DNA of 64,000 bases from an uncultured Actinomycetes bacterium. Its GTDB lineage: Bacteria > Actinomycetota > Thermoleophilia > Gaiellales > Gaiellaceae. This document shows, piece by piece, positions 1,445 through 47,517 of the stretch. The stretch lies in NCBI GenBank assembly GCA_963752845.1, contig CAVVZV010000003.1, forward strand, positions 320,708 through 384,707. The letters are read 5' to 3'. A model generated the notes under the pieces. That model saw only the letters and a program-made list of their open reading frames with translations. It did no database searches and was not told where the DNA came from. Each line of letters starts with the position of its first letter. The first letter of the stretch is position 1. The position numbers and the translations under genes are program-made.

Positions 1445-2980
<1,536 letters not shown>

Positions 2981-2983
<3 letters not shown>

Positions 2984-3177
2984 GACGTCGCTTGCGATGT
3001 CTCTGGAAGGCGCGGCCGTGAGACGTCGCTTGCGATGTCTCATTCAGGCCGTGCGGCTAAGGCATCGCTTGCGATGCCGTTTAGAGGGCATGCTGGCTTT
3101 GCCAGCGTGCCCGTTCCTTCTCCCGGACGGCCGTCTGCAATGACCGGTCGACACATTGGGAGCTGGGCGGTGCGGTC
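2981..3177 (+). repeat. Intercistronic modular stem-loop cassette, copy 1 (modules A, A, B, C, tail, SD)
   Basis: Module coordinates:
- Hairpin A GAGACGTCGC-TT-GCGATGTCTC at 2982-3003, and again at 3020-3041.
- Hairpin B GGCATCGC-TT-GCGATGCC at 3061-3078.
- Hairpin C GGGCATGCTGGC-TTT-GCCAGCGTGCCC at 3086-3112.
- Tail CGTCTGCAATGACCGGTCGACAC at 3132-3154.
The same modules recur at 6918, 18312 and 22611(-). Confidence 0.85.
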
Positions 3178-4404
3178 GTGAGCGCGAGCGGTGGTCTGCT
3201 CCCGCCTGACGTTCCGGATGCCGCTCCCAGCGTCGCCGCGCGGTTCGATCTCTACCAGCGGGCGGGCGGGATCATTACGCCGCTGCTCACGGCGCTCTTC
3301 GCCTTCTTCGTCGGGGGCCTCGTCGTCCTCGTAACCACCGGCAAGAACCCGCTCGACACGTACAGGGCGATCTTCGACGGAACCGGTCTCAACTGGCTGT
3401 TCCCGTGGGTGCGAGGCGAGGAGCGCGAGCTCGCCGCCCTGAATCTCCAACAGACCTTGATCTTGACGACGACGCTGATCCTGGCAGGCCTCGCCGTCGC
3501 ATTCGCTTTCCGGTGCGGCCTCTTCAACATCGGCGGTCAGGGTCAGTACATCGCCGGGATGGTCACAGCTGCCCAGGTCGGCATCTGGCTGCCGGACCTC
3601 GGGCACGTGCCTCACATGGTGCTCGCGGCCGGGGCGGGCGCTCTTGCTGGAGCGCTCTGGGCGGGGATCGCCGGGATCCTCAAGGCGACCGTCGGCGCCC
3701 ACGAGGTGATCACGACGATCATGCTGAACTGGACCGCGCTCTGGGTCGGCAGCTACCTCGTCGGCTTCGGTGGGCCGCTTCAGGACCCGGCGCAGGAGTT
3801 CGTGCCGGTGATGAAGGAGGTCTCGCAGGGAGCGAAGCTGAACGTCTGGTGGGGCGATCCCAGTGCGCAGGGCCTCCACATCGGGTTCTTCGTCGCCATT
3901 GCCGCGCTCATCGTGTTCTGGATCGTGCTCAACCGGACAACGCTCGGCTACCAGGTGCGAGCGGTCGGTTTCAACCCCGACGCGGCCAGCTACGGCGGGA
4001 TTAGCGTGGGTCGCAGCTACTTCCTCGCGATGGCGATCTCAGGTGCGTTCGCGGGCCTCGCGGGCAGCGTCGACATCCTCGGCTGGCTGTTCCGAGTCGA
4101 CCTTACGAGCATCCAGGTGTCGTCCACGATCGCGTTCATGGGGATCGCGGTCGCGCTACTCGGGCGGAACACGCCGGTGGGGATCTTCTTTGGGGCCCTC
4201 CTCTTCGGCGCGCTCCTGAACGGAACGTCGACTCGTAACCTCGACCCTGCCGTCTTCGAGCCCGAGCTTGCCGGCAACCTGACGCTGATCATCCAGGGGC
4301 TGGTCGTGCTCTTCGTCGGTGCCGATCTCTTGATCCTCTACCTCTGGCGCGCACGGCTCAGGCTCCGCCGGAAGCCGCCACCGGAGGTCGTGACGGAGCC
4401 GTGA
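3178..4404 (+). CDS. ABC transporter permease (BMP/nucleoside system, first subunit)
   Basis: 408-aa polytopic ORF with motif FRCGLFNIGGQGQY. GTGA start/stop overlap with the next gene at 4401-4404. Confidence 0.85.
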   Translation: MSASGGLLPPDVPDAAPSVAARFDLYQRAGGIITPLLTALFAFFVGGLVVLVTTGKNPLDTYRAIFDGTGLNWLFPWVRGEERELAALNLQQTLILTTTLILAGLAVAFAFRCGLFNIGGQGQYIAGMVTAAQVGIWLPDLGHVPHMVLAAGAGALAGALWAGIAGILKATVGAHEVITTIMLNWTALWVGSYLVGFGGPLQDPAQEFVPVMKEVSQGAKLNVWWGDPSAQGLHIGFFVAIAALIVFWIVLNRTTLGYQVRAVGFNPDAASYGGISVGRSYFLAMAISGAFAGLAGSVDILGWLFRVDLTSIQVSSTIAFMGIAVALLGRNTPVGIFFGALLFGALLNGTSTRNLDPAVFEPELAGNLTLIIQGLVVLFVGADLLILYLWRARLRLRRKPPPEVVTEP

Positions 4405-5630
4405 GCGTCGCGGCGGGCGTAGTCGAACGCGTGGGTGTCCGGATCGACCTCGCGAAGGTCCTCGGGATCGTCTCGATCGCCCTGGGGTTCCTTGCGTTCT
4501 GGGTCGCGCTGCCGCCGCTGACCACTCAGTCGGTCGCCGTCCCCGTCGCGCTCGGCGTCGGAGGCATCGCAGCGGGCCTTTGGTCCTGGCGTCAGGGTCA
4601 GACACGGCTGGGCTGGACCGGCGTCTGTGTCGCCTTGCTCGGGCTCCTGGGCGGGGTTTTCGCGACGCGCGCGGCCGAGGCCAACCTCGAGGTCGTGATC
4701 ACCTGGTCAGCCCTGACGGCGGCCACACTACGGTATGCGACTCCGCTGACTTTTGCTGCGATTGGCGGCCTGTTCTCCGAACGGAGCGGCGTCGTCAACA
4801 TCGGCCTCGAGGGAATGATGTTGATGGGCGCCTTCTTCGGGATCTACGGGGCTGACCGTACGAACTCCTGGGTCGCAGGCATCTTCATCGGCGCGGCCGC
4901 CGGCGCGGCGCTCGCGCTCGTTCACGCCTTCTTCTCTATCCACCTGCGCTCGGATCAGATCGTCAGCGGCACGGCAATCAACTTCCTCGCGCTCGGGCTG
5001 ACGGGGTATCTCTACATCGACCTCTACGGAACCGAGGGGACGGGTGAGATTCCGGCGGTGCCGGACGTCCACCTCGACTTCCTGGGGCGCATCCCGCCGG
5101 AAGGCCTGGGCAACTTCCTCGACCGGGCGTTCGGGCAGCTCAACCTGATGATCTGGCTCGCCCTCGCCACTGTCGTCCTCGCCTACATCGTCATCTTCAA
5201 GACCGCGATCGGGCTTCGGATCCGCGCCGTGGGGGAGCATCCGCGCGCCGCCGACACCGTCGGAATCTCCGTGTATGCCGTTCGCTACGCGGCCGTCACC
5301 CTCTCTGGCGCGCTCGCCGCGCTTGGTGGCGTCTACCTCTCGCTCGGGTTCGTCCACTCGTTCACCGAGAACATGACCGCCGGCCGAGGCTTCATTGCCC
5401 TGGCCGCGCTGATCTTCGGCAAGTGGCATCCGTTCGGCGCTCTCGGGGCGGCACTCCTATTCGGGTTCGCAAGCGCCGTCGCGCCTCGCCTCGAGAACGT
5501 GGAGAGCTGGGCGACCTACGGCACGCTCTTCCAGGCCCTTCCCTACGTGCTCACCCTGATCGCCGTCGCAGGGGTGATCGGACGCTCGATCCCGCCCGCC
5601 GCCATCGGGCGGGCGTACGAAAAGCAGTAG
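4401..5630 (+). CDS. ABC transporter permease (BMP/nucleoside system, second subunit)
   Basis: 409-aa polytopic ORF with motif FSERSGVVNIGLEGMML, typical of the partner permease. Confidence 0.85.
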   Translation: MSVAAGVVERVGVRIDLAKVLGIVSIALGFLAFWVALPPLTTQSVAVPVALGVGGIAAGLWSWRQGQTRLGWTGVCVALLGLLGGVFATRAAEANLEVVITWSALTAATLRYATPLTFAAIGGLFSERSGVVNIGLEGMMLMGAFFGIYGADRTNSWVAGIFIGAAAGAALALVHAFFSIHLRSDQIVSGTAINFLALGLTGYLYIDLYGTEGTGEIPAVPDVHLDFLGRIPPEGLGNFLDRAFGQLNLMIWLALATVVLAYIVIFKTAIGLRIRAVGEHPRAADTVGISVYAVRYAAVTLSGALAALGGVYLSLGFVHSFTENMTAGRGFIALAALIFGKWHPFGALGAALLFGFASAVAPRLENVESWATYGTLFQALPYVLTLIAVAGVIGRSIPPAAIGRAYEKQ

Positions 5631-5658
5631 CGACCGCCGCAGTCGCCAGAATCGCCGT

Positions 5659-6920
5659 GTGACCGGGCCGGACGAGGTCGAAAGGGCGCCCGCCGGCGAG
5701 GAGGCGTCGACGGTGGCTGCCCGGCTCGGCCGGTACCAGCAGGCCGGAGGCCTGGTGACCGCCCTGATCACCACGGTTGTCGCCTTTCTCCTGGCCGGAC
5801 TCGTGGTCGTTGCGACCACCGGGCGAACCCGCTCCCGGTCTACCGCGGAATCCTCGACGGCACCGGCCTCACCTGGCTTGTCCACTGGTTCGTCGACGTG
5901 CGGACGATTGGCGGGACGCACGACATCTATCCGACCGAGGCCGACGCGGTCGCGATCGCGGCGATCAATCTCCAGCAGACGCTGATCCTGACGACGACCC
6001 TGATCCTGACGGGACTCGCGGTCGCGTTCGCCTTCCGCTGCGGGCTCTTCAACATCGGCGGGCAGGGGCAGTACTTGGTGGGCGTCACGGTGGCGGTCGC
6101 GATCGGAGCTGAGCTCAGCGGCCTTCCTCGGGGGATCCACGTTCCGCTCGCGCTCGCCTGCGCCGTCCTTGCCGGCGCTGCCTGGGCGGGGATCGCAGGC
6201 CTCATGCGCGCCACCGTCGGCGCCCACGAAGTGATCACGACGATCATGCTCAACTGGATCGCCTTCTGGGTCGCGAGCTATCTCTTCAGCATCGGCGGCC
6301 CGCTCCAGAGCGACACGCAGCGCTCGGTCCCGATCTCGAACGATGTCGCCGACTCCGCCAAGCTGCACGTGCTCTGGGGCGGGGTTCAGGGCCTGCACAT
6401 CGGCTTTCTCCTCGCCCTCGGCGCCCTCGTTGTCTTCTGGGCGATCATGAACCGCTCGACGCTCGGCTTCGAGGTTCGTGCGGTCGGCTACAACCCCGAG
6501 GCTGCACGCTACGGCGGCATCAGCGTGGCCCGCAACTACTTCCTCGCGATGGCGATCGCCGGCGGGTTCGCGGGCCTTGCGGGCGCGATCGACCTGCTCG
6601 GTTGGCAGTACCGGTACGGCCAGATCGACGTCCAGCAGTCGGAGGTCGGCTTCGTCGGGATCGCGGTCGCCCTGCTCGGCCGCAACAAGGCACTCGGGAT
6701 CCTCTTCTCCGCGCTTCTATTCGGCGCCCTCCTGACCGGGACGAGCACCAGGAATCTCAACCCCGACATCTTCGATCCGGAGCTGGCCGGCAACCTGACG
6801 CTGATCATCCAGGGGCTCATCGTGCTCTTCGTCGGGGCCGATCTACTCGTCATCTCCGTCTGGAGGGCGCGGAAACGACTGCCGCTGCTGCGGCGTAAGC
6901 CGAAGGCGGTGGGCTCGTGA
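5659..6920 (+). CDS. ABC transporter permease, paralog of 3178..4404, with an apparent 1-nt frameshift near 5824
   Basis: ORF 5659..5985 (N-terminus ...VVATTG) and ORF 5898..6920 align end to end with the first permease. Shifting frame at ACCACCGGGCGAACCCG restores TTG-x-NPLPVYRGILDGTGL. NLQQTLILTTTLIL.GLAVAFAFRCGLFNIGGQGQY is shared with the first copy. Confidence 0.7.
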
Positions 6921-7017
6921 GACATCGCTTTCGATGTCTCTGTCAGGCCGTGCGGGCTTTGCTCGCGCGGCCGTCTGCAATGACCGGTCGACACGGTCGA
7001 AGCTCAGAGGTTCGGCT
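6918..7017 (+). repeat. Intercistronic modular stem-loop cassette, copy 2 (A, degenerate C, tail, SD)
   Basis: Module coordinates:
- Hairpin A GAGACATCG-CTTT-CGATGTCTC at 6919-6940.
- Degenerate C GCGGGC-TTT-GCTCGC at 6952-6966.
- Tail CGTCTGCAATGACCGGTCGACAC at 6972-6994.
- AGAGGTTCGGCT followed by GTG 7018. Confidence 0.8.
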
Positions 7018-8208
7018 GTGAGCTCGTGGACCCGTCGGATCGGATTCGCGGGCATCGGGATCGCGGCGCTCGGCGTTTGGCTGATGCTGCCGCCGGTCGG
7101 TGACGCGCTGCGCGACGCCACCGGGATCTACGAGGTCATTCCCGTCGCGCTCGGCATCTTCGCGATCGCAGCGGGGATCTGGGTCGTCAGCCGCGGCGAG
7201 CGGAAGGTCGGCTGGGCGGCGATCGGCTGCGGCGTGATCGGGATCGGCCTGGGCCTCGCGGCGGCGCAAGCGAGCGTGGCCGACAACGAGGCCGTGTTCG
7301 TCTGGTCGAGCCTGATCGCGGCCACGCTGCGCTGGGCGACGCCGCTGATCTTCGCCGCGATCGGCGGCATGTTCTCCGAGCGCAGCGGCGTGGCGAACAT
7401 CGCGCTCGAGGGCATGATGCTCGCGGGGGCGTTCTTCGGCATTTGGGGCGCCGTCCGCTTCGACCACTGGGCCATAGGCCTGCTGACTGCGATGGCGGCG
7501 GGTGGAGCGCTGGCCCTCGTCCACGCGTTCTTCTCGATCCACCTGCGTGCCGACCAGATCGTCAGCGGGACGGCGATCAACTTCCTGGCGCTGGGGCTGA
7601 CGGGCTACCTCTACATCGACATCTACGGCGACGAGGGCACGCCGACCGACCTCTCGACGATCCCCAACGTGCACCTCTCGTTCCTCGACGACGTGTATTT
7701 CCTCGGGCCGATCTTCGGGGACATGAACCTGATGATCTGGCTCGCCCTGGCGACGGTGGTCCTCTCCTGGGTCGTCCTCTTCAAGACCCCGATCGGGCTC
7801 CGCATCCGCTCCGTGGGGGAGCACCCGCGCGCGGCCGACACGGTCGGGATCTCGGTCTACAAGATTCGGTATGCCGCCGTCACCCTCTCGGGCGTGCTCG
7901 CCGCGCTCGGTGGCGCCTACCTCTCGATCGGGTTCGTCGGCTCGTTCGGCGAGAATATGACCGTGGGTAGAGGATTCATCGCGCTCGCGGCGCTGATCTT
8001 CGGGATGTGGAAGCCGTTCGGCGCCTTCGGCGCCGCGCTCCTCTTCGGCTTCTCGAGCGCGCTCGCCCGCTCGCTGCCGGAGTACTCCGAACAGGCTGCG
8101 CTTCTGTTCGAGACCCTGCCGTACGTCTTGACCCTGATCGCGGTCGGAGGATTGATCGGCCGCTCGATTCCTCCCGCCGCTATTGGCCGGCCTTACGAGA
8201 AGCAATAG
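7018..8208 (+). CDS. ABC transporter permease, paralog of 4401..5630
   Basis: Lies in the frame of ORF 6934..8208. Aligns with the 4401 protein (FSERSGVANIALEGMML; C-terminus RSIPPAAIGRPYEKQ against RSIPPAAIGRAYEKQ). GTG 7018 was chosen by alignment and by the upstream SD. Confidence 0.8.
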   Translation: MSSWTRRIGFAGIGIAALGVWLMLPPVGDALRDATGIYEVIPVALGIFAIAAGIWVVSRGERKVGWAAIGCGVIGIGLGLAAAQASVADNEAVFVWSSLIAATLRWATPLIFAAIGGMFSERSGVANIALEGMMLAGAFFGIWGAVRFDHWAIGLLTAMAAGGALALVHAFFSIHLRADQIVSGTAINFLALGLTGYLYIDIYGDEGTPTDLSTIPNVHLSFLDDVYFLGPIFGDMNLMIWLALATVVLSWVVLFKTPIGLRIRSVGEHPRAADTVGISVYKIRYAAVTLSGVLAALGGAYLSIGFVGSFGENMTVGRGFIALAALIFGMWKPFGAFGAALLFGFSSALARSLPEYSEQAALLFETLPYVLTLIAVGGLIGRSIPPAAIGRPYEKQ

Positions 8209-16690: not shown

Positions 16691-17614
16691 CGTCATCGCA
16701 ATCTTCGGGCCGACCGCGTCGGGCAAGAGCGCCGTCGCCGAGGCGCTGGCGGAGCGGATCCCTGCGCGGCTCGTCTCCGCCGACGCGATGCAGGTCTACC
16801 GCGGTGTCCCGATCCTCACGAACCAGTCCGAGTACCCGACCGAGCTGGTCGGGATCTGGGGGCTCGAGCACGAGGCGTCGGTCGGGGAGTACGCCGAGCT
16901 CGCGCACGCCGTGATCGACCGCGCACTCGAGGAGGGCCTGACGCCGATCGTCGTCGGCGGCACGGGCCTCTACCTCCGGGCGGCGCTCGTCGAGCTCGGC
17001 CTTCCACCGGCCCCGTCACGCGAAGCGCGAGCGCGCTGGGAGCGCAGCCTACGACGAGCTGGGGCCCGAGGCGGCGCACGACGCGCTCGCCGAGCGGGAT
17101 CCCGAGGCAGCGTCGCGAATCCATCCCAATGACCGTCGCAGAGTCATCCGGGCGCTGGAGCTGGCCGAGGCAGGCGCTTCGCTCGCGCCGAGCGAGGACC
17201 GGCTGTGGAGCGAGGAGGTGCGCCACCCGACCCTCCTCGTCGGCTCTCGACGTGCCGATGGACGTGCTCGAGCGCCGCATCCAGGAACGTGCGAGGACGA
17301 TGCTGGAGCGTGGCGCGGAGGCTGAGGCGCGCCGCGCCCTGGCCGGCCCGATCTCCTCGACGGCCCGGACGATCTACGGTCTCGAGGAGCTCGCCGAGCT
17401 GCCGCCAGACGAGGCGCTGGGGGCGCTCGTTCGCCGTACTCGTCGCTACGCGGCGTACCAGCGCAAGTGGATGCGACGGATTCCGGGCCTTGTTAGCCTG
17501 CCCGCCGATCGCCCTCCGGGCGAGGTGGCGGATGCGATTCTCGAAATGGCACGGCCTCGGCAACGATTACCTGCTGGTCCAGCGAGCCGATCTGGACGAG
17601 CCACTGACGCCTGA
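16683..17614 (+). CDS. miaA: tRNA dimethylallyltransferase MiaA, with two apparent frameshifts (~17047, ~17245)
   Basis: VIAIFGPTASGKSAVAE P-loop in the frame of ORF 16338..17132. A middle segment YDELGPEAAHDALAERDPEAASRIHPNDRRRVIRALE lies in the third frame. The end (LDVPMDVLERRIQER...) lies in ORF 17129..17614. Confidence 0.85.
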
Positions 17615-18314
17615 GCAGGTTCGCCGGCTGTGCGACTACCACTTCGGCGTCGGTTCCGACGGCGTGCTCGAGGTCATCTCGACGAACAGTGCCCGGGCCG
17701 ACATCGTGATCTGGAACCCGGACGGCTCGACCGCCGAGCTCTCCGGCAACGGCACGCGCATCGCCGCCCGGTGGCTGGCACGGCGGAGCGGGGCGGAAAC
17801 GGTCAGGATCTCGGTCGGCCCCCGCGAAGTTGTCGCGCGCATGCGCGGCGGCCTTCAGGTCGAGATGGAGATGGGCCGAGTGGAGGTCGGCGATCCCGAG
17901 AGGCTCGACGTCGGCGACGAGCCCGTGGAGCTGACTCCGGCCTCGGTCGGAAACCCGCACGCAGTTGTGCAAAGAGAGCCCGATCGCGAGACGCTTCTAC
18001 GCCTCGGCCCGCTGATCGAGAACCACGAGCGATTCCCGGAGCGAACGAACGTCCAGCTTGTGCGCGTCGACGGTCCGAGTGATCTGAGCGTCGGCGTGTG
18101 GGAACGCGGGGCGGGGGAGACCCTCTCCTCCGGGACGAGCGCCGTCGCCTGTGCGGCGGTCGCCGTCGCCCGCGGGTGGTGCACGAGCCCGGTGACCGTT
18201 CACCTGTCAGGCGGCGACCTCGTCGTCGAGCTTGACGACGACTGGAATGCGCGACTGACCGGACCGGCGCAGGAGATCTTCATCGGCGAGACGGCCGAGG
18301 AGTTCGGAGCGTGA
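17532..18314 (+). CDS. dapF: Diaminopimelate epimerase
   Basis: MRFSKWHGLGNDYLLV... in the frame of ORF 17205..18314, with SGNGTR and SGTSA active-site regions. Confidence 0.9.
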   Translation: MRFSKWHGLGNDYLLVQRADLDEPLTPEQVRRLCDYHFGVGSDGVLEVISTNSARADIVIWNPDGSTAELSGNGTRIAARWLARRSGAETVRISVGPREVVARMRGGLQVEMEMGRVEVGDPERLDVGDEPVELTPASVGNPHAVVQREPDRETLLRLGPLIENHERFPERTNVQLVRVDGPSDLSVGVWERGAGETLSSGTSAVACAAVAVARGWCTSPVTVHLSGGDLVVELDDDWNARLTGPAQEIFIGETAEEFGA

Positions 18315-18387
18315 GACAACGCTTGCGTTGTCTCCTTCAGCCCGTGCGGCTAAGGCATCGCTTGCGATGCCGCTTGGAGGTTCAGGC
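18312..18387 (+). repeat. Intercistronic modular stem-loop cassette, copy 3 (A, B, SD)
   Basis: Hairpin A GAGACAACGC-TT-GCGTTGTCTC at 18313-18334. Linker CTTCAGCCCGTGCGGCTAA. Hairpin B GGCATCGC-TT-GCGATGCC at 18354-18371. GGAGGTTCAGGC followed by GTG 18388. Confidence 0.85.
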
Positions 18388-19568
18388 GTGAGGTTCGCCC
18401 GCCGGCTCGACCAAGTGCCGCCGTACTTGTTCGCGGAGCTGGAGCGCAAGGTCTCCGCGAAGCAGCGAAAGGGGATCGACGTGATCAGCCTCGGGATCGG
18501 CGATCCCGATCTGCCGACCCCCGAGGTGGTCGTAGAGGCGGCCGCCGCTGCGCTGCGCGACCCCGGCACTCATCAGTACCCGAGCAACCAGGGCAGCCTG
18601 GAGTTCCGCGAGGCCGTCGCCGGCTTCTACCGCGAGCGCTTCGGCGTCGAGCTCGACCCGGCCTCGGAGGTGATGCCGGTGCTAGGCGGCAAGGAGGCCG
18701 TCGGGCACATCGCGATGGCGTGCCTCGACCCGGGAGATCTCTGCCTCAGCCCCGAGCCCGGCTATCCGCCGTACACGTCCGGTCCGGTCTTCTCCGGCGC
18801 CGAGGTGCACTACCTGCCCCTGACCGAGGAGAACCATTTCTTCCCGGAGCTCGGAGCGATCCCGGACGAGATCGCGCGACGCGCCAACCTCCTCTACCTC
18901 GACTACCCGAACAATCCCACCGGCGCGATCGTCCCCGATGGCGCCTTCGGGCAAGCCGTCGCCTTTGCCCGGCGAGCACGAACTGATCGTCGTCCACGAC
19001 AACGCCTACTCGGAGATCACTTTCGACGGCTACGTCGCGCCGAGCTTCCTCGAGACGCCGGGAGCCAAGGAGGTCGGGGTCGAGATCTTCTCGCTCTCGA
19101 AGGGCTGGAACATGACCGGCTGGCGCTGCGGGCTCGTCGCCGGGAACGCCGAGCTCATCGAGCGCTATCGGCAGCTGAAGACGAATCTGGACTCGGGCCT
19201 GTTCGAGGCGCTCCAGCGCGCAGCGGTGGTCGCGTTGACCGACGCAGCGGGACTTCCCTCGGCAGATGTCGGAGGTCTACCAGCGACGGCGCGACCTGCT
19301 GGTCGAGGCGCTCGCGCAGATCGGGCTCGACGTCGAGCCTCCGAAGGCGACGCCGTACTTCTGGGTGCGCGTGCCGGAGGGACACACGTCCGCGTCGTTC
19401 GCATCGCTCGTGCTCGATCAGGCGAACGTGGTCGTCTCGCCCGGGCCGGGCTACGGTCCGAGCGGCGAGGGATTCGTCCGGCTGTCGTTGACTGTCCCTG
19501 ACGAGCGGCTCGAGGAGGCCGTGCGACGAATCGAGAGCTCGTTGCGCGCGTCCATAATTCAGGCGTGA
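18388..19568 (+). CDS. Class I/II aminotransferase, LL-diaminopimelate aminotransferase-like, with two apparent frameshifts (~18970, ~19248)
   Basis: [16 protein letters not shown]...[14 protein letters not shown], then YPNNPTG. It continues in ORF 18938..19501 ([32 protein letters not shown]) and ORF 19266..19568. It sits adjacent to dapF. Confidence 0.8.
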
Positions 19569-21313: not shown

Positions 21314-21736
21314 ATGGGCGTCGAGCCGCGAATCCGCGTGTCGGCGATCCTGCGTCGCGAGGGCCGGATCCTGCTCTGCAGCCACGAGAAGGGTGGCAAG
21401 CAGTACTGGCTGCTCCCGGGCGGTGGCGTCAACTCGGGTGAGAGCCTCGTCGACGCCCTGCACCGCGAGCTGCTCGAGGAGGTGGGGATCCGGGACGAGC
21501 TACCGGTCGAAGGGCCGGTCGCGATCGTCGACTCGATCGCTCCGCAGCGAAGCTTCGCCGCCAAGCACGTCGTTCACATCATCTTCGCGGGCGACCTCGG
21601 CGAGCGGTCGCTCGAGACGGTCAGCTCTCAGGACGCCGCGGTGCGGGGCCATCGGCTGTTCGCAGCCGGCGAGCTGGACGAGATCGTGCTGCACCCGCCG
21701 ATCCAGCGCTTCCTGACGCGCTGGCGAGCCCGGTGA
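21314..21736 (+). CDS. NUDIX hydrolase
   Basis: Nudix box GGGVNSGESLVDALHRELLEEVG. Confidence 0.85.
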   Translation: MGVEPRIRVSAILRREGRILLCSHEKGGKQYWLLPGGGVNSGESLVDALHRELLEEVGIRDELPVEGPVAIVDSIAPQRSFAAKHVVHIIFAGDLGERSLETVSSQDAAVRGHRLFAAGELDEIVLHPPIQRFLTRWRAR

Positions 21737-21858
21737 CCCGGTCGTCTATCTCGGCCCGCTCTGGGTGCCGTAGCTGAGACACGCTTCCGGCACGAATTCG
21801 TGTGTCACAGGCGCGGGCCGGCCGACTATGCTCGCCGCGGGGAGGAGGCTGGGTGCAC

Positions 21859-22610
21859 CTAGGTGTACCTGCCTCCTCGGGTCCTGGCTCGCGAGGCGGA
21901 GACCGCATGGGCCTCGGCTTCGAGCGCATCCGCGAGCGGATCGAGCTCGTCGCCTCGCTGCCGGTTCGATGCGCCAGGGCCTCCGCGAGGAGCCAGTCGG
22001 CCAGCCACGGATTCCGAGGCAAGAGCGGCCCGTGGAGGTACGTCCCGATTGCTCGGCCGACGCGGCAGCCTTCGAAGCCGCTCTCGCCGTCATTGCCGAA
22101 CCCCGCGATGACCCGGCCCAGCGGCTCAGCTCCGTCGTCGAGGATCGTCCGGCCGGCGTGGTTCTCGAACCCGGCGAGCGTGCGCCGCCGCCCAGGCATG
22201 AGCTCGCACTCGAGCAGCACGTCGCCGATCATCCGCCGCTCGCCGGCCACCGTGTGGAGCGGGAGGAGTCCGATCCCGGGCAGCTCGTCCCCGCTTCGCT
22301 CCCGGTAGAAGCGCCCGAGCAGCTGGTAGCCGCCGCAGACCGCGAGCACCGCGGCGCCGCCCGCCACCGCCTCGACGAGACCCTCCTTGCCGGCCAGGTC
22401 ACGCGCGACGAGCGCCTGCTCCGGTCCTGGCCGCCGCCGATGTAGTAGAGGTCGTGCGCGCCGGGCTCGACCGGATCGTTCATCCCGATCGCGGCGACCT
22501 CCAAGCTCGTGCCCGCGCCAGGCCGCCCGCCTGGCGAGCACGGCGATGTTGCCGCGATCGGCGTAGATGTTGAGGTAGCTGGGGTAGAGATGGCCGACGC
22601 GGATCTTCAT
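21859..22610 (-). CDS. gatD: Lipid II isoglutaminyl synthase glutaminase subunit GatD (CobB/CobQ-like GATase), with about three apparent frameshifts (~22500, ~22423, ~21953)
   Basis: MKIRVGHLYPSYLNIYADRGN, AVCGGYQLLG, TYLHGPLLPRNP. The segment EVAAIGMNDPVEPGAHDLYYIGGGQDR lies in ORF 22229..22504. The C-terminus DELDPLADALEAEAHAV is restored in another frame, with stop at 21859-21861. Confidence 0.8.
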
Positions 22611-22770
22611 CGCCGAACCTCCTGACGGACAGCGTATCGACCGGTCGTTTCAGACGCCCGCGCAGGCAGGGACGGCGGGCACGCTGGCAAAGCCAGCATG
22701 CGCTCGAGACGGCATCGCAAGCGATGCCTGAGCTGCACGGGCTGAAGGCGACACCGCAAGCGGCGTCTCA
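22611..22770 (-). repeat. Intercistronic modular stem-loop cassette, copy 4 (A, B, C, tail, SD), in sense with murT-gatD
   Basis: The reverse complement reads ATGAGACGCCGC-TT-GCGGTGTCGCC, TTCAGCCCGTGCAGCTCA, GGCATCGC-TT-GCGATGCC (22711-22728), GCGCATGCTGGC-TTT-GCCAGCGTGCCC (22677-22703), CGTCTGAAACGACCGGTCGATAC (22634-22656), then CAGGAGGTTCGGCG-ATG (gatD start). Confidence 0.85.
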
Positions 22771-24145
22771 TGCCGCCTGCTCCCAGTAGGGCCGGGCGAA
22801 ACCGCGCTCGGTGACAATGCGGCGCAGTCCGAGCATCGCCGTGTACGTCGGGATCACGAACAACTCGCTTCCGCTCGGCGTCAGCTCGAGGCCGCGGTCC
22901 AGCGCTCGCCCGAGGTCCGGCTCCACTTCGATCGCGCCCTCGTCGAACCCCGCGTACTTGAAGCGCAGGGCGAGCTCGGCGGCGCGCTGACCGGTCACGA
23001 CGACACGCTCGAGACGCTCGAGCAGGGGCTCGAAATCGACGTCCCAGATCCACGAGACGTCGCGGCCGTCCGCGATCTCGTCGTTGAGCGCGATCAGGGC
23101 CCGGCGAGGCGCACCGCCGGCGACGAGCGTCCGGACGACCTCGTTCGCGCCGGCCGGATTCTTGACGAGCAGCATCAGCACCGTCCGCTCGCCGATGCGC
23201 AGACGCTCGAACCGCCCAAACGCGGCCGTGAAGCGCTCCAGGCCCGTTTTGATCTCGTCGCGCGACGCCCCGAGCACACGCGCCAGCGCTGCCGCGGCCA
23301 GCGCGTTGTAGACGTTGTAGAGCCCGGGGAGACGCAGCCGCACAGGCATCGATCCTTCGTCGTCGACCAGATCGAACGAGACCGCTTCCAGGCCCGTGTA
23401 GCTCGATCGACCGCGCGGTGAGGTCGAGCGCCGGACGGGCATGACCGCAGGCGGGGCAGCGGTAGTCGCCGAGGTGCCCGACGTATGCCGCCGCGTAGTC
23501 GTAGGGCGTGCCGCAGCGCAGGCACCACTTCGAGTCCGCGGCGTGCTGGAGCTCAGGCGCGGCCCGTCGCGGGTCATCCAAGCCGAAGACGATGCTGCTC
23601 GGACGGTCGCGCGCCAGGTCGCCCACCTGTGGATCGTCGCCGTTGACGACGAGCTCCGTGCCGTCGCCGAGCTCCGCCACGGCCCGGCGCCAGCGCTCGG
23701 CGACGAGCTCGAGCTCGCCGTAGCGGTCGAGCTGGTCGCGGAAGAGGTTGCCCAGGCAGAGCGCACGTGGGCGGACCCGACGGGCGACGTCGGGAAGCGC
23801 GGCCTCGTCGACCTCGAACAGGCCGAGCTCGGCCTCCCGGGCCGAGAGCAGCGTGGAAGCGACTCCCGAGATCAGGTTCGCTCCGGAGCTGTTGTGGGCG
23901 AGCCGCACCCGACCCTCGAGGATCTCGGCGACCATCGCAGTCGTCGTCGTCTTGCCGTTGGTGGCCGAGACGAGGGCCGCTCCCAGGGGGAGCCGCGCCG
24001 CCAGGCGCTCGACCGCCTCGGGCGCGAGGAACGTGAGCACCTTGCCCGGCACGGTCGTTCCACCGCCCGTTCGCGCGAGCCGTGACAGGCCTCCGGCCGC
24101 GCGCGCCGCGGCGACTCCGGCGGTTAGCGGAAGGCGGAGACGCAC
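22768..24145 (-). CDS. murT: Lipid II isoglutaminyl synthase MurT (Mur-ligase family), with one apparent frameshift (~23392)
   Basis: SATNGKTTT P-loop and a Cys4 ribbon CLRCGTPYDY...YRCPACG (ORF 22607..24145). The C-terminal half lies in ORF 22768..23766 (LPGLYNVYNALAAAA..., DUF1727-like end). Its stop is the TGA that opens the repeat. Confidence 0.85.
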
Positions 24146-47382: not shown

Positions 47383-47442
47383 CCAGAGCCTCCTTCCCGC
47401 CGTTTGGGCCACCTGTGGGCCACGCCGCCGCGAGCATTTGAG

Positions 47443-47517
47443 TCGGGGCGCCCGGATTTGAACCGGGGACCTCTAGTCCCCCAGACTAGCGCGCTAACCA
47501 GGCTGCGCCACGCCCCG
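47443..47517 (-). tRNA. tRNA-Pro (anticodon GGG)
   Basis: Manual cloverleaf:
- Acceptor stem CGGGGCG/CGCCCCG.
- D stem GCGC/GCGC.
- Anticodon stem CTAGT/ACTAG, with loop CTGGGGG.
- T arm CCCGG-TTCAAAT-CCGGG.
- Discriminator A.
No CCA is encoded. Confidence 0.9.

Follow-up and report, generated by a model that had tools for sequence, protein, structure and literature searches.

The closest described counterparts of the repeat treated here are MIRUs (short for mycobacterial interspersed repetitive units), which occur in unit sizes of 77 and 53 bp. They are described as units of 40–100 bp that are scattered through the Mycobacterium tuberculosis genome, often in tandem (PMC2734929), and Supply et al. 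(1997), as summarised in PMC12548453, describe the unit as an open reading frame (ORF) that overlaps the neighbouring stop and start codons by 4 nt. Long direct repeats of the target are known from the insertion sequences (ISs) IS1549 and IS1634, in which they vary from 8 to 514 bp and have no mechanistic model (PMC2266710). The present analysis concerns a window of 64,000 nt from an uncultured bacterium of the Gaiellaceae (assembly GCA_963752845.1, contig CAVVZV010000003.1, positions 320,708–384,707, forward strand). It contains four short cassettes, each lying between two operon genes and bracketed by RTGA (R, A or G), the tetranucleotide in which a stop codon and the next start codon overlap. 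The four cassettes represent one mosaic, hairpin-rich interspersed family that is widespread in Gaiellales, has inserted at RTGA overlaps, and would probably be crossed by a translational relay. The family may be regarded as a MIRU analogue, likened to MIRUs by architecture and not by sequence.

The cassettes are insertions into RTGA stop/start overlaps that leave both flanking ORFs intact, as the original prediction proposed. All four start with RTGAGAC and end with RTGA(G/A), and the eight junction pentamers reported in that prediction are confirmed by direct reading (Table 1). The left TGA is the in-frame stop codon of the upstream gene, and orthologues of the downstream gene use the right RTG as their start. 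By Pfam, the flanking genes form the pairs ABC_tran/BPD_transp_2, BPD_transp_2/BPD_transp_2, DAP_epimerase/Aminotran_1_2, and MurT_C/GATase_3. The plain 4-nt overlaps listed for other gene pairs of the window are also present, and those at 4401 and 38323 read GTGAGC.

Empty junctions were found for every cassette (loci outside the window carry the prefix L). Among 80 metagenome loci with dapF relatives, all 27 junctions that have the aminotransferase directly downstream consist of a single 4-nt RTGA(G/A) overlap, with the conserved N-terminus M-R/K-F-A beginning at the overlap RTG. The same dapF junction is filled in L135, L138, and L186 by a different member of the family, a type I copy with a B head. 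The murT/gatD junction is an empty 4-nt overlap in three lineages (GTGAAG in L199–202, GTGAAA in L207, and GTGAGG in L208) and is filled by the composite of the window, with a period of 161 nt, in L203–206. The ATPase/permease junction is a plain 4-nt overlap in 7/7 relatives. Three contigs with a 98% identical permease (L209–211) lack cassette 1 and read TTGAGC, the others reading GTGAGC or GTGACC; cassette 1 is recent because its junction is empty in so close a relative. For cassette 2, an orthologous permease/permease junction (L215) reads GTGAAC as a 4-nt overlap, and a paralogous empty site lies within the window (Table 1). Filled and empty alleles coexist among close relatives. The comparison of orthologous junctions that was proposed with the original prediction thus favours insertion into RTGA overlaps.

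In all four window cassettes, the left RTG is joined to the right TGA by one mini-ORF in open frame or by several in a chain, a feature that the original prediction overlooked. The unit periods in the window are 38, 122, 38, 101, 77, and 161 nt, and 6/6 equal 2 modulo 3, as is required if a mini-ORF is to share 4 nt with each of its neighbours. A relay tracer followed stop-overlapping starts from every head preceded by a TGA or TAA that ends a coding ORF in frame. In 9/10 RTGA-left cassettes, namely the four window copies and L004, L042, L067, L074, and L075, a chain of 4-nt overlaps crosses an open mini-ORF and enters a long coding ORF; the tenth, L002, has no downstream gene. In the same run, heads with CTGA or CTAA on the left had no overlapping start. 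L135 likewise relays into a long ORF, and the frame is kept in 10/10 RTGA-left copies versus 2/5 CTGA-left operon copies (Fisher p = 0.022). In seven operon copies, GGTCGA and the right RTG lie exactly 32 nt apart although this stretch is only about half conserved, and a constant length despite sequence divergence is what frame maintenance would produce.

The original prediction held that a GGAGG carried by the element replaces translational coupling. AGAGG or GGAGG indeed lies 7 nt before the right start in copies 2–4, but a simple replacement of coupling is not supported: mini-ORFs are found in all four copies, and copy 1, the youngest, has no Shine–Dalgarno sequence within 15 nt of the start. 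From this arrangement we infer that the mini-ORFs are translated and that the relay matters. A ribosome leaving the upstream gene would terminate, re-initiate at the overlapping RTG, and translate through the cassette, melting its hairpins; it would then stop at the TGA that overlaps the next start and re-initiate there. The insertion would in this way be translationally transparent, as has been proposed for mycobacterial MIRUs, and translation of the operon downstream of the cassettes is probably still possible. In E. coli, Liang, Rudd and Deutscher in 2015 reportedly found that terminating ribosomes are impeded by repetitive extragenic palindrome (REP) hairpins lying no more than about 15 nt from a stop codon. 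By analogy, a hairpin whose stem takes in the GA of the stop may also modulate the output of the upstream gene.

Several points weigh against a relay at RTGA overlaps: (i) open frames of 26–54 codons are not rare in a genome of 68% GC; (ii) 17/18 non-operon type I copies come to the ATG of the tail in frame or to the ATGA there, so the in-frame property is partly inherited from the family consensus and not selected copy by copy; (iii) the operon copies L138, L186, and L039 have CTGA on the left and hence no canonical start, so the relay is dispensable where a good Shine–Dalgarno sequence is present; (iv) the second RTGA may arise by duplication, from a TGA borne by the element, or through microhomology; (v) the window itself contains several frameshifts, which are probable assembly errors; and (vi) the family sample is small and was ascertained by an exact match to hairpin B.

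Four modules make up the mosaic cassettes: head hairpin A (GAGACNNCGC-TT-GCGNNGTCTC), hairpin B (GGCATCGC-TT-GCGATGCC), hairpin C (GGGCATGCTGGC-TTT-GCCAGCGTGCCC), and tail D (CGTCTGCAATGACCGGTCGACAC). The repeat exceeds chance by far: 11 sites of the window match the head hairpin pattern versus 0.13 expected, and modules C and D have two and three matches, respectively, versus none expected. Two further head matches on the minus strand (24926 and 5463) were rejected as chance matches within coding sequence. Hairpin A is a variant of B with GAC…GTC in place of GGC…GCC. Copy 2 consists of A, a variable hairpin, and D, and copy 3 consists of A and B; lacking the D tail, copy 3 looks 3′-truncated. 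In copies 1 and 4, a B+C element is nested within the loop of the variable hairpin, and the predicted fold of copy 4 has an outer stem enclosing B and C. Copy 1 contains an additional head-only unit. In the predicted fold of copy 2 (7000–7025), AGCUCAGAGGUUCGGCUGUGAGCU forms a small hairpin in which GCUCA near the Shine–Dalgarno sequence pairs with UGAGC of the stop/start overlap. This predicted hairpin could mask the downstream start unless the mini-ORF is translated.

Table 1. Cassettes, mini-ORFs, and structural parts in the 64,000-nt window (window coordinates)
Feature	Coordinates	Strand	Description
Cassette 1	2980–3182	+	Recent insertion; head-only unit plus composite unit; between ABC ATPase (1436–2983) and permease (3178–4404); left ATGAG 2980–2984, right GTGAG 3178–3182
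Head hairpin A, first	2982–3003	+	GAGACGTCGC TT GCGATGTCTC; GA of stop codon inside stem
Head hairpin A, second	3020–3041	+	Own GTGA before
Hairpin B	3061–3078	+	CTAA before; head of second element nested in outer hairpin loop
Hairpin C	3086–3112	+	GGGCATGCTGGC TTT GCCAGCGTGCCC
D tail	3132–3154	+	CGTCTGCAATGACCGGTCGACAC; internal ATGA 3140–3143 is stop of mini-ORF 2 and start of mini-ORF 3
Mini-ORF chain	2980–3021, 3018–3143, 3140–3181	+	13, 41, and 13 codons; RTGA joints ATGA 2980, GTGA 3018, ATGA 3140, GTGA 3178
Cassette 2	6917–7022	+	Between permease (5898–6920) and permease (7018–8208); left GTGAG 6917–6921, right GTGAG 7018–7022
Head hairpin	6919–6940	+	
Variable hairpin	6946–6972	+	
D tail	6972–6994	+	
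AGAGG	7006–7010	+	
Mini-ORF	6917–7021	+	34 codons; GTG overlaps upstream TGA, TGA overlaps downstream GTG
Cassette 3	18311–18392	+	Between dapF (~17532–18314) and aminotransferase (start 18388); left GTGAG 18311–18315, right GTGAG 18388–18392
Head hairpin	18313–18334	+	
Hairpin B	18354–18371	+	
GGAGG	18376–18380	+	
Mini-ORF	18311–18391	+	26 codons
Cassette 4	22606–22771	−	Between murT (stop 22770–22768) and gatD (start 22610); left ATGAG 22771–22767, right ATGAA 22610–22606
Head	22769–22750	−	
Hairpin B	22728–22711	−	
Hairpin C	22701–22677	−	
D tail	22656–22634	−	
GGAGG	22622–22618	−	
Mini-ORF	22771–22607	−	54 codons
Paralogous empty site	4401–4404	+	Plain GTGA overlap (GTGAGC) in first permease pair

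The permeases of the window form tandem paralogous BPD_transp_2 pairs (3178–5630 and 5898–8208) with 71–81% DNA identity over long blocks, and a cassette is present at the internal junction of the second pair only. Some of the housekeeping genes are split across frames: 22768–24145 (−), 21621–22610 (−), and 18388–19568 (+). For murT, the N-terminal half lies in the frame of ORF 22607–24145 and the C-terminal half in the one that ends at 22768. Compared with 250-aa orthologues, gatD has an internal out-of-frame stretch (about residues 35–63) and a shifted C-terminus, and the Pfam match of the aminotransferase at 18388 is confined to residues 31–196. The splits in murT, gatD, and the aminotransferase are probably indel errors of a long-read metagenome-assembled genome (MAG) and not pseudogenes.

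The repeat family was sampled by one scan of a genome collection with an internal 18-mer of hairpin B, which returned at least 118 stretches, mostly from Gaiellaceae/Gaiellales and related Actinomycetota soil MAGs and alike in modular layout. The full unit comprises (i) a 5′ (C)YRA (Y, C or T), usually CTGA, (ii) hairpin 1, (iii) a variable hairpin 2, and (iv) a conserved tail, GTCTGAAATGACCGGTCGA. Operon copies have an additional 20-nt stretch after the tail that bears the Shine–Dalgarno sequence, and units can be nested or truncated. Type I copies have a head, a hairpin 2 of variable sequence, and the tail GTCTGAAATGACCGGTCGA; in type II copies, a head and a hairpin are followed by GTCTAAAC or GGGCTAAC. 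The A-B-C-D composite of copies 1 and 4 also occurs at L004, L047, L067, and L074, and the composite itself has therefore spread. On the minus strand of L038 (oriented position ~5915), a tail-only fragment, CTGA GCTGACGGGTCGACAC...CAGGAGCC...TAGATGAGC, lies between co-directional genes, so head-only and tail-only fragments both exist. Tandem arrays of 2–4 units, with a period of ~100–110 nt including non-repeat spacer, occur at L007 (minus), L095, L045, L036, L039, L090, L001, and L110; these loci resemble variable-number tandem repeats (VNTRs) and are reminiscent of MIRU-VNTRs.

The two hairpins are strongly supported as structures. Across 28 type I copies, 94.7% of cells are paired and eight pairs show compensatory double changes, values that 0/500 shuffles reach, and slid controls are 24–52% paired. 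Many G-U pairs favour the sense strand, with predicted energies for copy 2 of −65.1 versus −53.9 kcal/mol. Some type II copies also show 5′-CTRAG/3′-CTYAG covariation, which is absent from type I and on which no claim is based. At the gathering threshold, only tRNA-Pro matched Rfam; at E ≤ 1, nothing matched in 2900–7100, and a 19-bit whalefall-1 hit at 18313–18334 (gathering score 37) is at chance level. Terminator-like sites number two versus a shuffled expectation of 2.0. A literature search with the repeat's own sequences returned no paper, and one on Gaiellales repeats gave nothing relevant.

The distribution of the family qualifies the specificity for operon junctions that the original prediction suggested. 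Such junctions hold only about one-tenth of the sampled heads, so the specificity does not apply to the family as a whole; it does apply to the GAGAC-head subfamily that populates the window, which was found only at such operon junctions (8/8 independent loci). A further ~330 kb of Gaiellales DNA fetched via genes and not via the repeat (L119–L215) contains almost no copies outside the targeted junctions (one, in L156). Set against four cassettes in 64 kb, this indicates that copy density varies strongly between lineages.

How the RTGA bracket came about is best approached from the two ends of the element. The four bases before hairpin 1 are CTGA in 31 copies, CTAA in 19, CCAA in 13, and CCGA in 12, versus ATGA in eight and GTGA in six; the 5′ consensus is CTGA with transition variants in coding, non-coding, and antisense contexts alike, and A or G at position −4 is almost confined to operon junctions. 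At the other end, a direct repeat of the left flank lies immediately right of the element in 18/78 cassettes above the 99th percentile of cross-paired controls, and at least 10 single copies duplicate 14–63 nt of host flank. Among them, L015 duplicates 44 nt from the 5′ part of tRNA-Pro, L010 duplicates 63 diverged nt at the 3′ end of a sigma-factor gene (its C-terminus), and L008, L043, L021, L087, and L005 duplicate 15–21 nt. The long duplications end 3–5 nt before hairpin 1 and no YRA follows the right copy; (C)YRA therefore travels with the element. Where heads lie at most 50 nt downstream of a co-directional stop, the stop abuts the hairpin (at −3 to −1 or at −1) in 14/25, including copies that have no coupled downstream gene and for which nearby positions would be harmless. 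The equally viable arrangement, an RTGA followed by a (C)TGA-hairpin, was never seen among the family copies.

The most economical reading of these ends is that the right RTGA is original and the left TGA is borne by the element. The element's 5′ TGA would now terminate the upstream gene, the original junction RTGA would remain at the right as the downstream start, and the base before the left TGA, which preserves or creates a start codon, would be either the first base of the old start codon or a purine that was selected. Some preference for joining the head end at TGA is still needed. As to the mode of movement, we infer a possible, if tentative, scenario in which this is an undescribed family of tiny, translationally transparent elements with (i) their own 5′ stop (CTGA), (ii) a conserved tail, GTCTGAAATGACC, that offers ATG in one frame and TGA in the other two and would allow stop and restart from any frame, (iii) an optional Shine–Dalgarno tail, (iv) a GAGAC-head subfamily found only at RTGA overlaps, and (v) an unusual route of movement, either TGA-primed copying or an IS1549/IS1634-like enzyme acting in trans. 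Copying primed on the target TGA, whether target-primed or by template switching, is speculation, but it would fit a head that is constant alongside a tail and duplications that vary.

A simple target-site duplication, as the original prediction assumed, is doubtful. It posits a staggered cut in RTGA(G) that duplicates 4–5 nt, so that both RTGA copies derive from the target and the body of the element starts after TGAG. All empty sites indeed have one RTGA and all filled sites two, and this part of the earlier account stands. The right junction is RTGA in 9/9 relay copies and 5/7 CTGA-left operon copies (binomial p ~1e-4, with an assumed 40% A after starts), and the near-restriction of A or G at −4 to operon junctions is expected if this base comes from the old start codon. 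The origin of the left copy in the target does not stand equally well, since in nearly all copies, whatever their context, hairpin 1 follows TGA or a transition variant of it, which lies outside the long duplications. Left and right R are the same in 5/9 relay copies and differ in 4/9, among them copy 1, which a 98% identical relative lacks, and duplication lengths elsewhere in the family vary from 14 to 63 nt. At murT/gatD, an empty GTGAAG contrasts with a filled left junction of ATGAG. Beyond RTGA, a comparison of own-left/own-right with cross pairs in the nine relay cassettes gave no significant duplication (p 0.12–0.30), with L074 alone clearly similar (14/20).

The fifth base that the original prediction included in the bracket is not supported as a significant part of it. 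On the left, G is the first stem base, since hairpin A is a mere variant of B. On the right, G occurs in 3/4 window cassettes and 7/9 relay copies, which is not clearly above background given ~4/9 of plain junctions, and the empty GTGAAG of murT/gatD implies that G is not target-derived there.

It is unlikely that targeting is lacking altogether, with the element landing at random, generating variable duplications in the manner of IS1549/IS1634, and being seen within RTGA brackets only through the survivorship of coupling-preserving copies. The long, variable duplications, each of the long ones regenerating an intact gene on one side, agree with such landing and with the 8–514-bp direct repeats, likewise without a mechanistic model, of IS1549/IS1634 (PMC2266710), as does the location of most family copies outside operon junctions. 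Yet 14/25 heads near a stop abut it exactly, even without a coupled gene, the alternative order of RTGA before a (C)TGA-hairpin is missing though equally viable, and the dapF junction has been hit at least twice.

Single-stranded DNA transposition of the IS200/IS605 type, which the original prediction also suggested, or of the kind mediated by a REP-associated tyrosine transposase (RAYT), appears improbable. It would place a hairpin-ended element beside a fixed TGA(G) without duplication, the second TGA being at the other end of the element. Strand-specific hairpins with G-T pairs, a short conserved motif adjoining hairpin 1, non-operon type I copies that end in NTGA 13 nt past GGTCGA (six independent loci), and the lack of duplication beyond TGAG in copy 1 are all compatible with it. 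Host duplications of 14–63 nt in at least 10 single copies (e.g., L015 and L010) are foreign to such chemistry, however, and the arrays are direct, not inverted. A search of ~1.3 Mb of fetched loci for an autonomous element, with head and tail 0.3–3 kb apart and enclosing a gene, found no such head-to-tail pair. Because the duplications are long and variable and the 3′ ends heterogeneous, the classical IS200/IS605 or REP/RAYT picture is excluded.

A classical miniature inverted-repeat transposable element was considered and rejected: the 3′ ends (GGTCGAYNC... or, in type II, heterogeneous) are not inverted copies of the 5′ end CTGAGGCATCGC, and the duplication length is not fixed, ranging from 0–5 nt to 63 nt. 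Only a weak 6–7-nt likeness (GCATCG) between the head and some tails was found in a search for terminal inverted repeats, and it is inconsistent across copies. Missing inverted termini, long variable duplications, and heterogeneous 3′ ends together exclude such an element. Finally, a native cis-regulatory RNA (attenuator, processing site, or terminator), for which stable hairpins with sense-strand covariation and a weak T-rich run after hairpin C of copy 1 might speak, is highly improbable, since each of the four junctions is free of the cassette in close relatives, which already contradicts it, the modules also turn up between unrelated genes and beside tRNA genes, and neither the Rfam search at E ≤ 1, with its one chance-level match, nor the terminator-like count, equal to the shuffled expectation, favours it. 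The inserted hairpins may nevertheless have a secondary regulatory effect.

tRNA genes are recurrent neighbours of the family. Elements lie just upstream of tRNA-Pro(GGG) in L015 (tRNA 5515–5589, −), L051, and L088, and to their left are partial copies of the tRNA-Pro 5′ part of 44, 21, and ~12 nt. The differing extents of these copies indicate at least two independent insertions in the same tRNA gene, with an intact gene restored each time. The tRNA-Pro of the window (47442–47517, −) has no element. In two different MAGs (L028 ~6330–6480 and L116 ~5050–5200), an apparent second tRNA-Asn-like copy lies downstream of an intact tRNA-Asn, and a type II element interrupts the anticodon-loop region of the second copy; ARAGORN calls the first gene only.

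If the relay works, a selfish repeat has a general route into 4-nt operon overlaps, the most constrained non-coding positions of a compact genome, with coupling unbroken, and this strategy would have arisen independently of mycobacterial MIRUs. The cassettes provide a natural system for studying termination and re-initiation across strong hairpins, as well as presence/absence and copy-number markers for an abundant uncultured soil lineage. They are also a warning for annotation, as the 80–200-nt cassettes of Gaiellales operons, with their apparent extra starts and stops, are insertions and not gene-boundary errors. The long variable duplications of their flanks bear on how bacteria generate such duplications.

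Among the known systems, REPs and their composites, the bacterial interspersed mosaic elements (BIMEs) and REPINs, share with the Gaiellales family (i) extragenic, GC-rich imperfect palindromes, (ii) a short motif conserved at the hairpin foot, (iii) mosaic combinations, (iv) a high copy number in some lineages, and (v) transcribed inter- or post-genic positions. The GTAG motif of REPs is absent here, however, and the motif is (C)YRA, mostly CTGA; the units are direct and not inverted pairs as in REPINs, no RAYT partner was seen, flank duplications are present, and a mini-ORF relay is not a REP feature. IS1549 and IS1634 are similar in their long variable direct target repeats (14–63 nt here), and IS1549 is actinobacterial. 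Both differ in being ISs of 1.5–2 kb with terminal inverted repeats and a DDE transposase, whereas the present elements measure 40–160 nt, have no convincing inverted termini, and showed no link to a transposase.

In architecture, the family matches MIRUs as they are described. Both families consist of short, dispersed, sometimes tandem units that lie co-oriented between operon genes (38–161 nt here), and both have 4-nt ORF overlaps at either end (4/4 in the window and 9/10 RTGA-left cassettes). Unit periods equal 2 modulo 3 in both (38, 77, 83, 101, 122, and 161 here), and both are interpreted as insertions that would preserve downstream translation. The differences lie in (i) the host, which is Gaiellales and not Mycobacterium, (ii) the strong GC hairpins and the mosaic, nestable build, (iii) the location of most members outside operon junctions, (iv) a 5′ stop (CTGA) that the family brings itself and a conserved tail that has ATG in one frame and TGA in the other two, and (v) long variable flank duplications in many copies. 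The repeat is best regarded as a new MIRU-like intercistronic mobile repeat.

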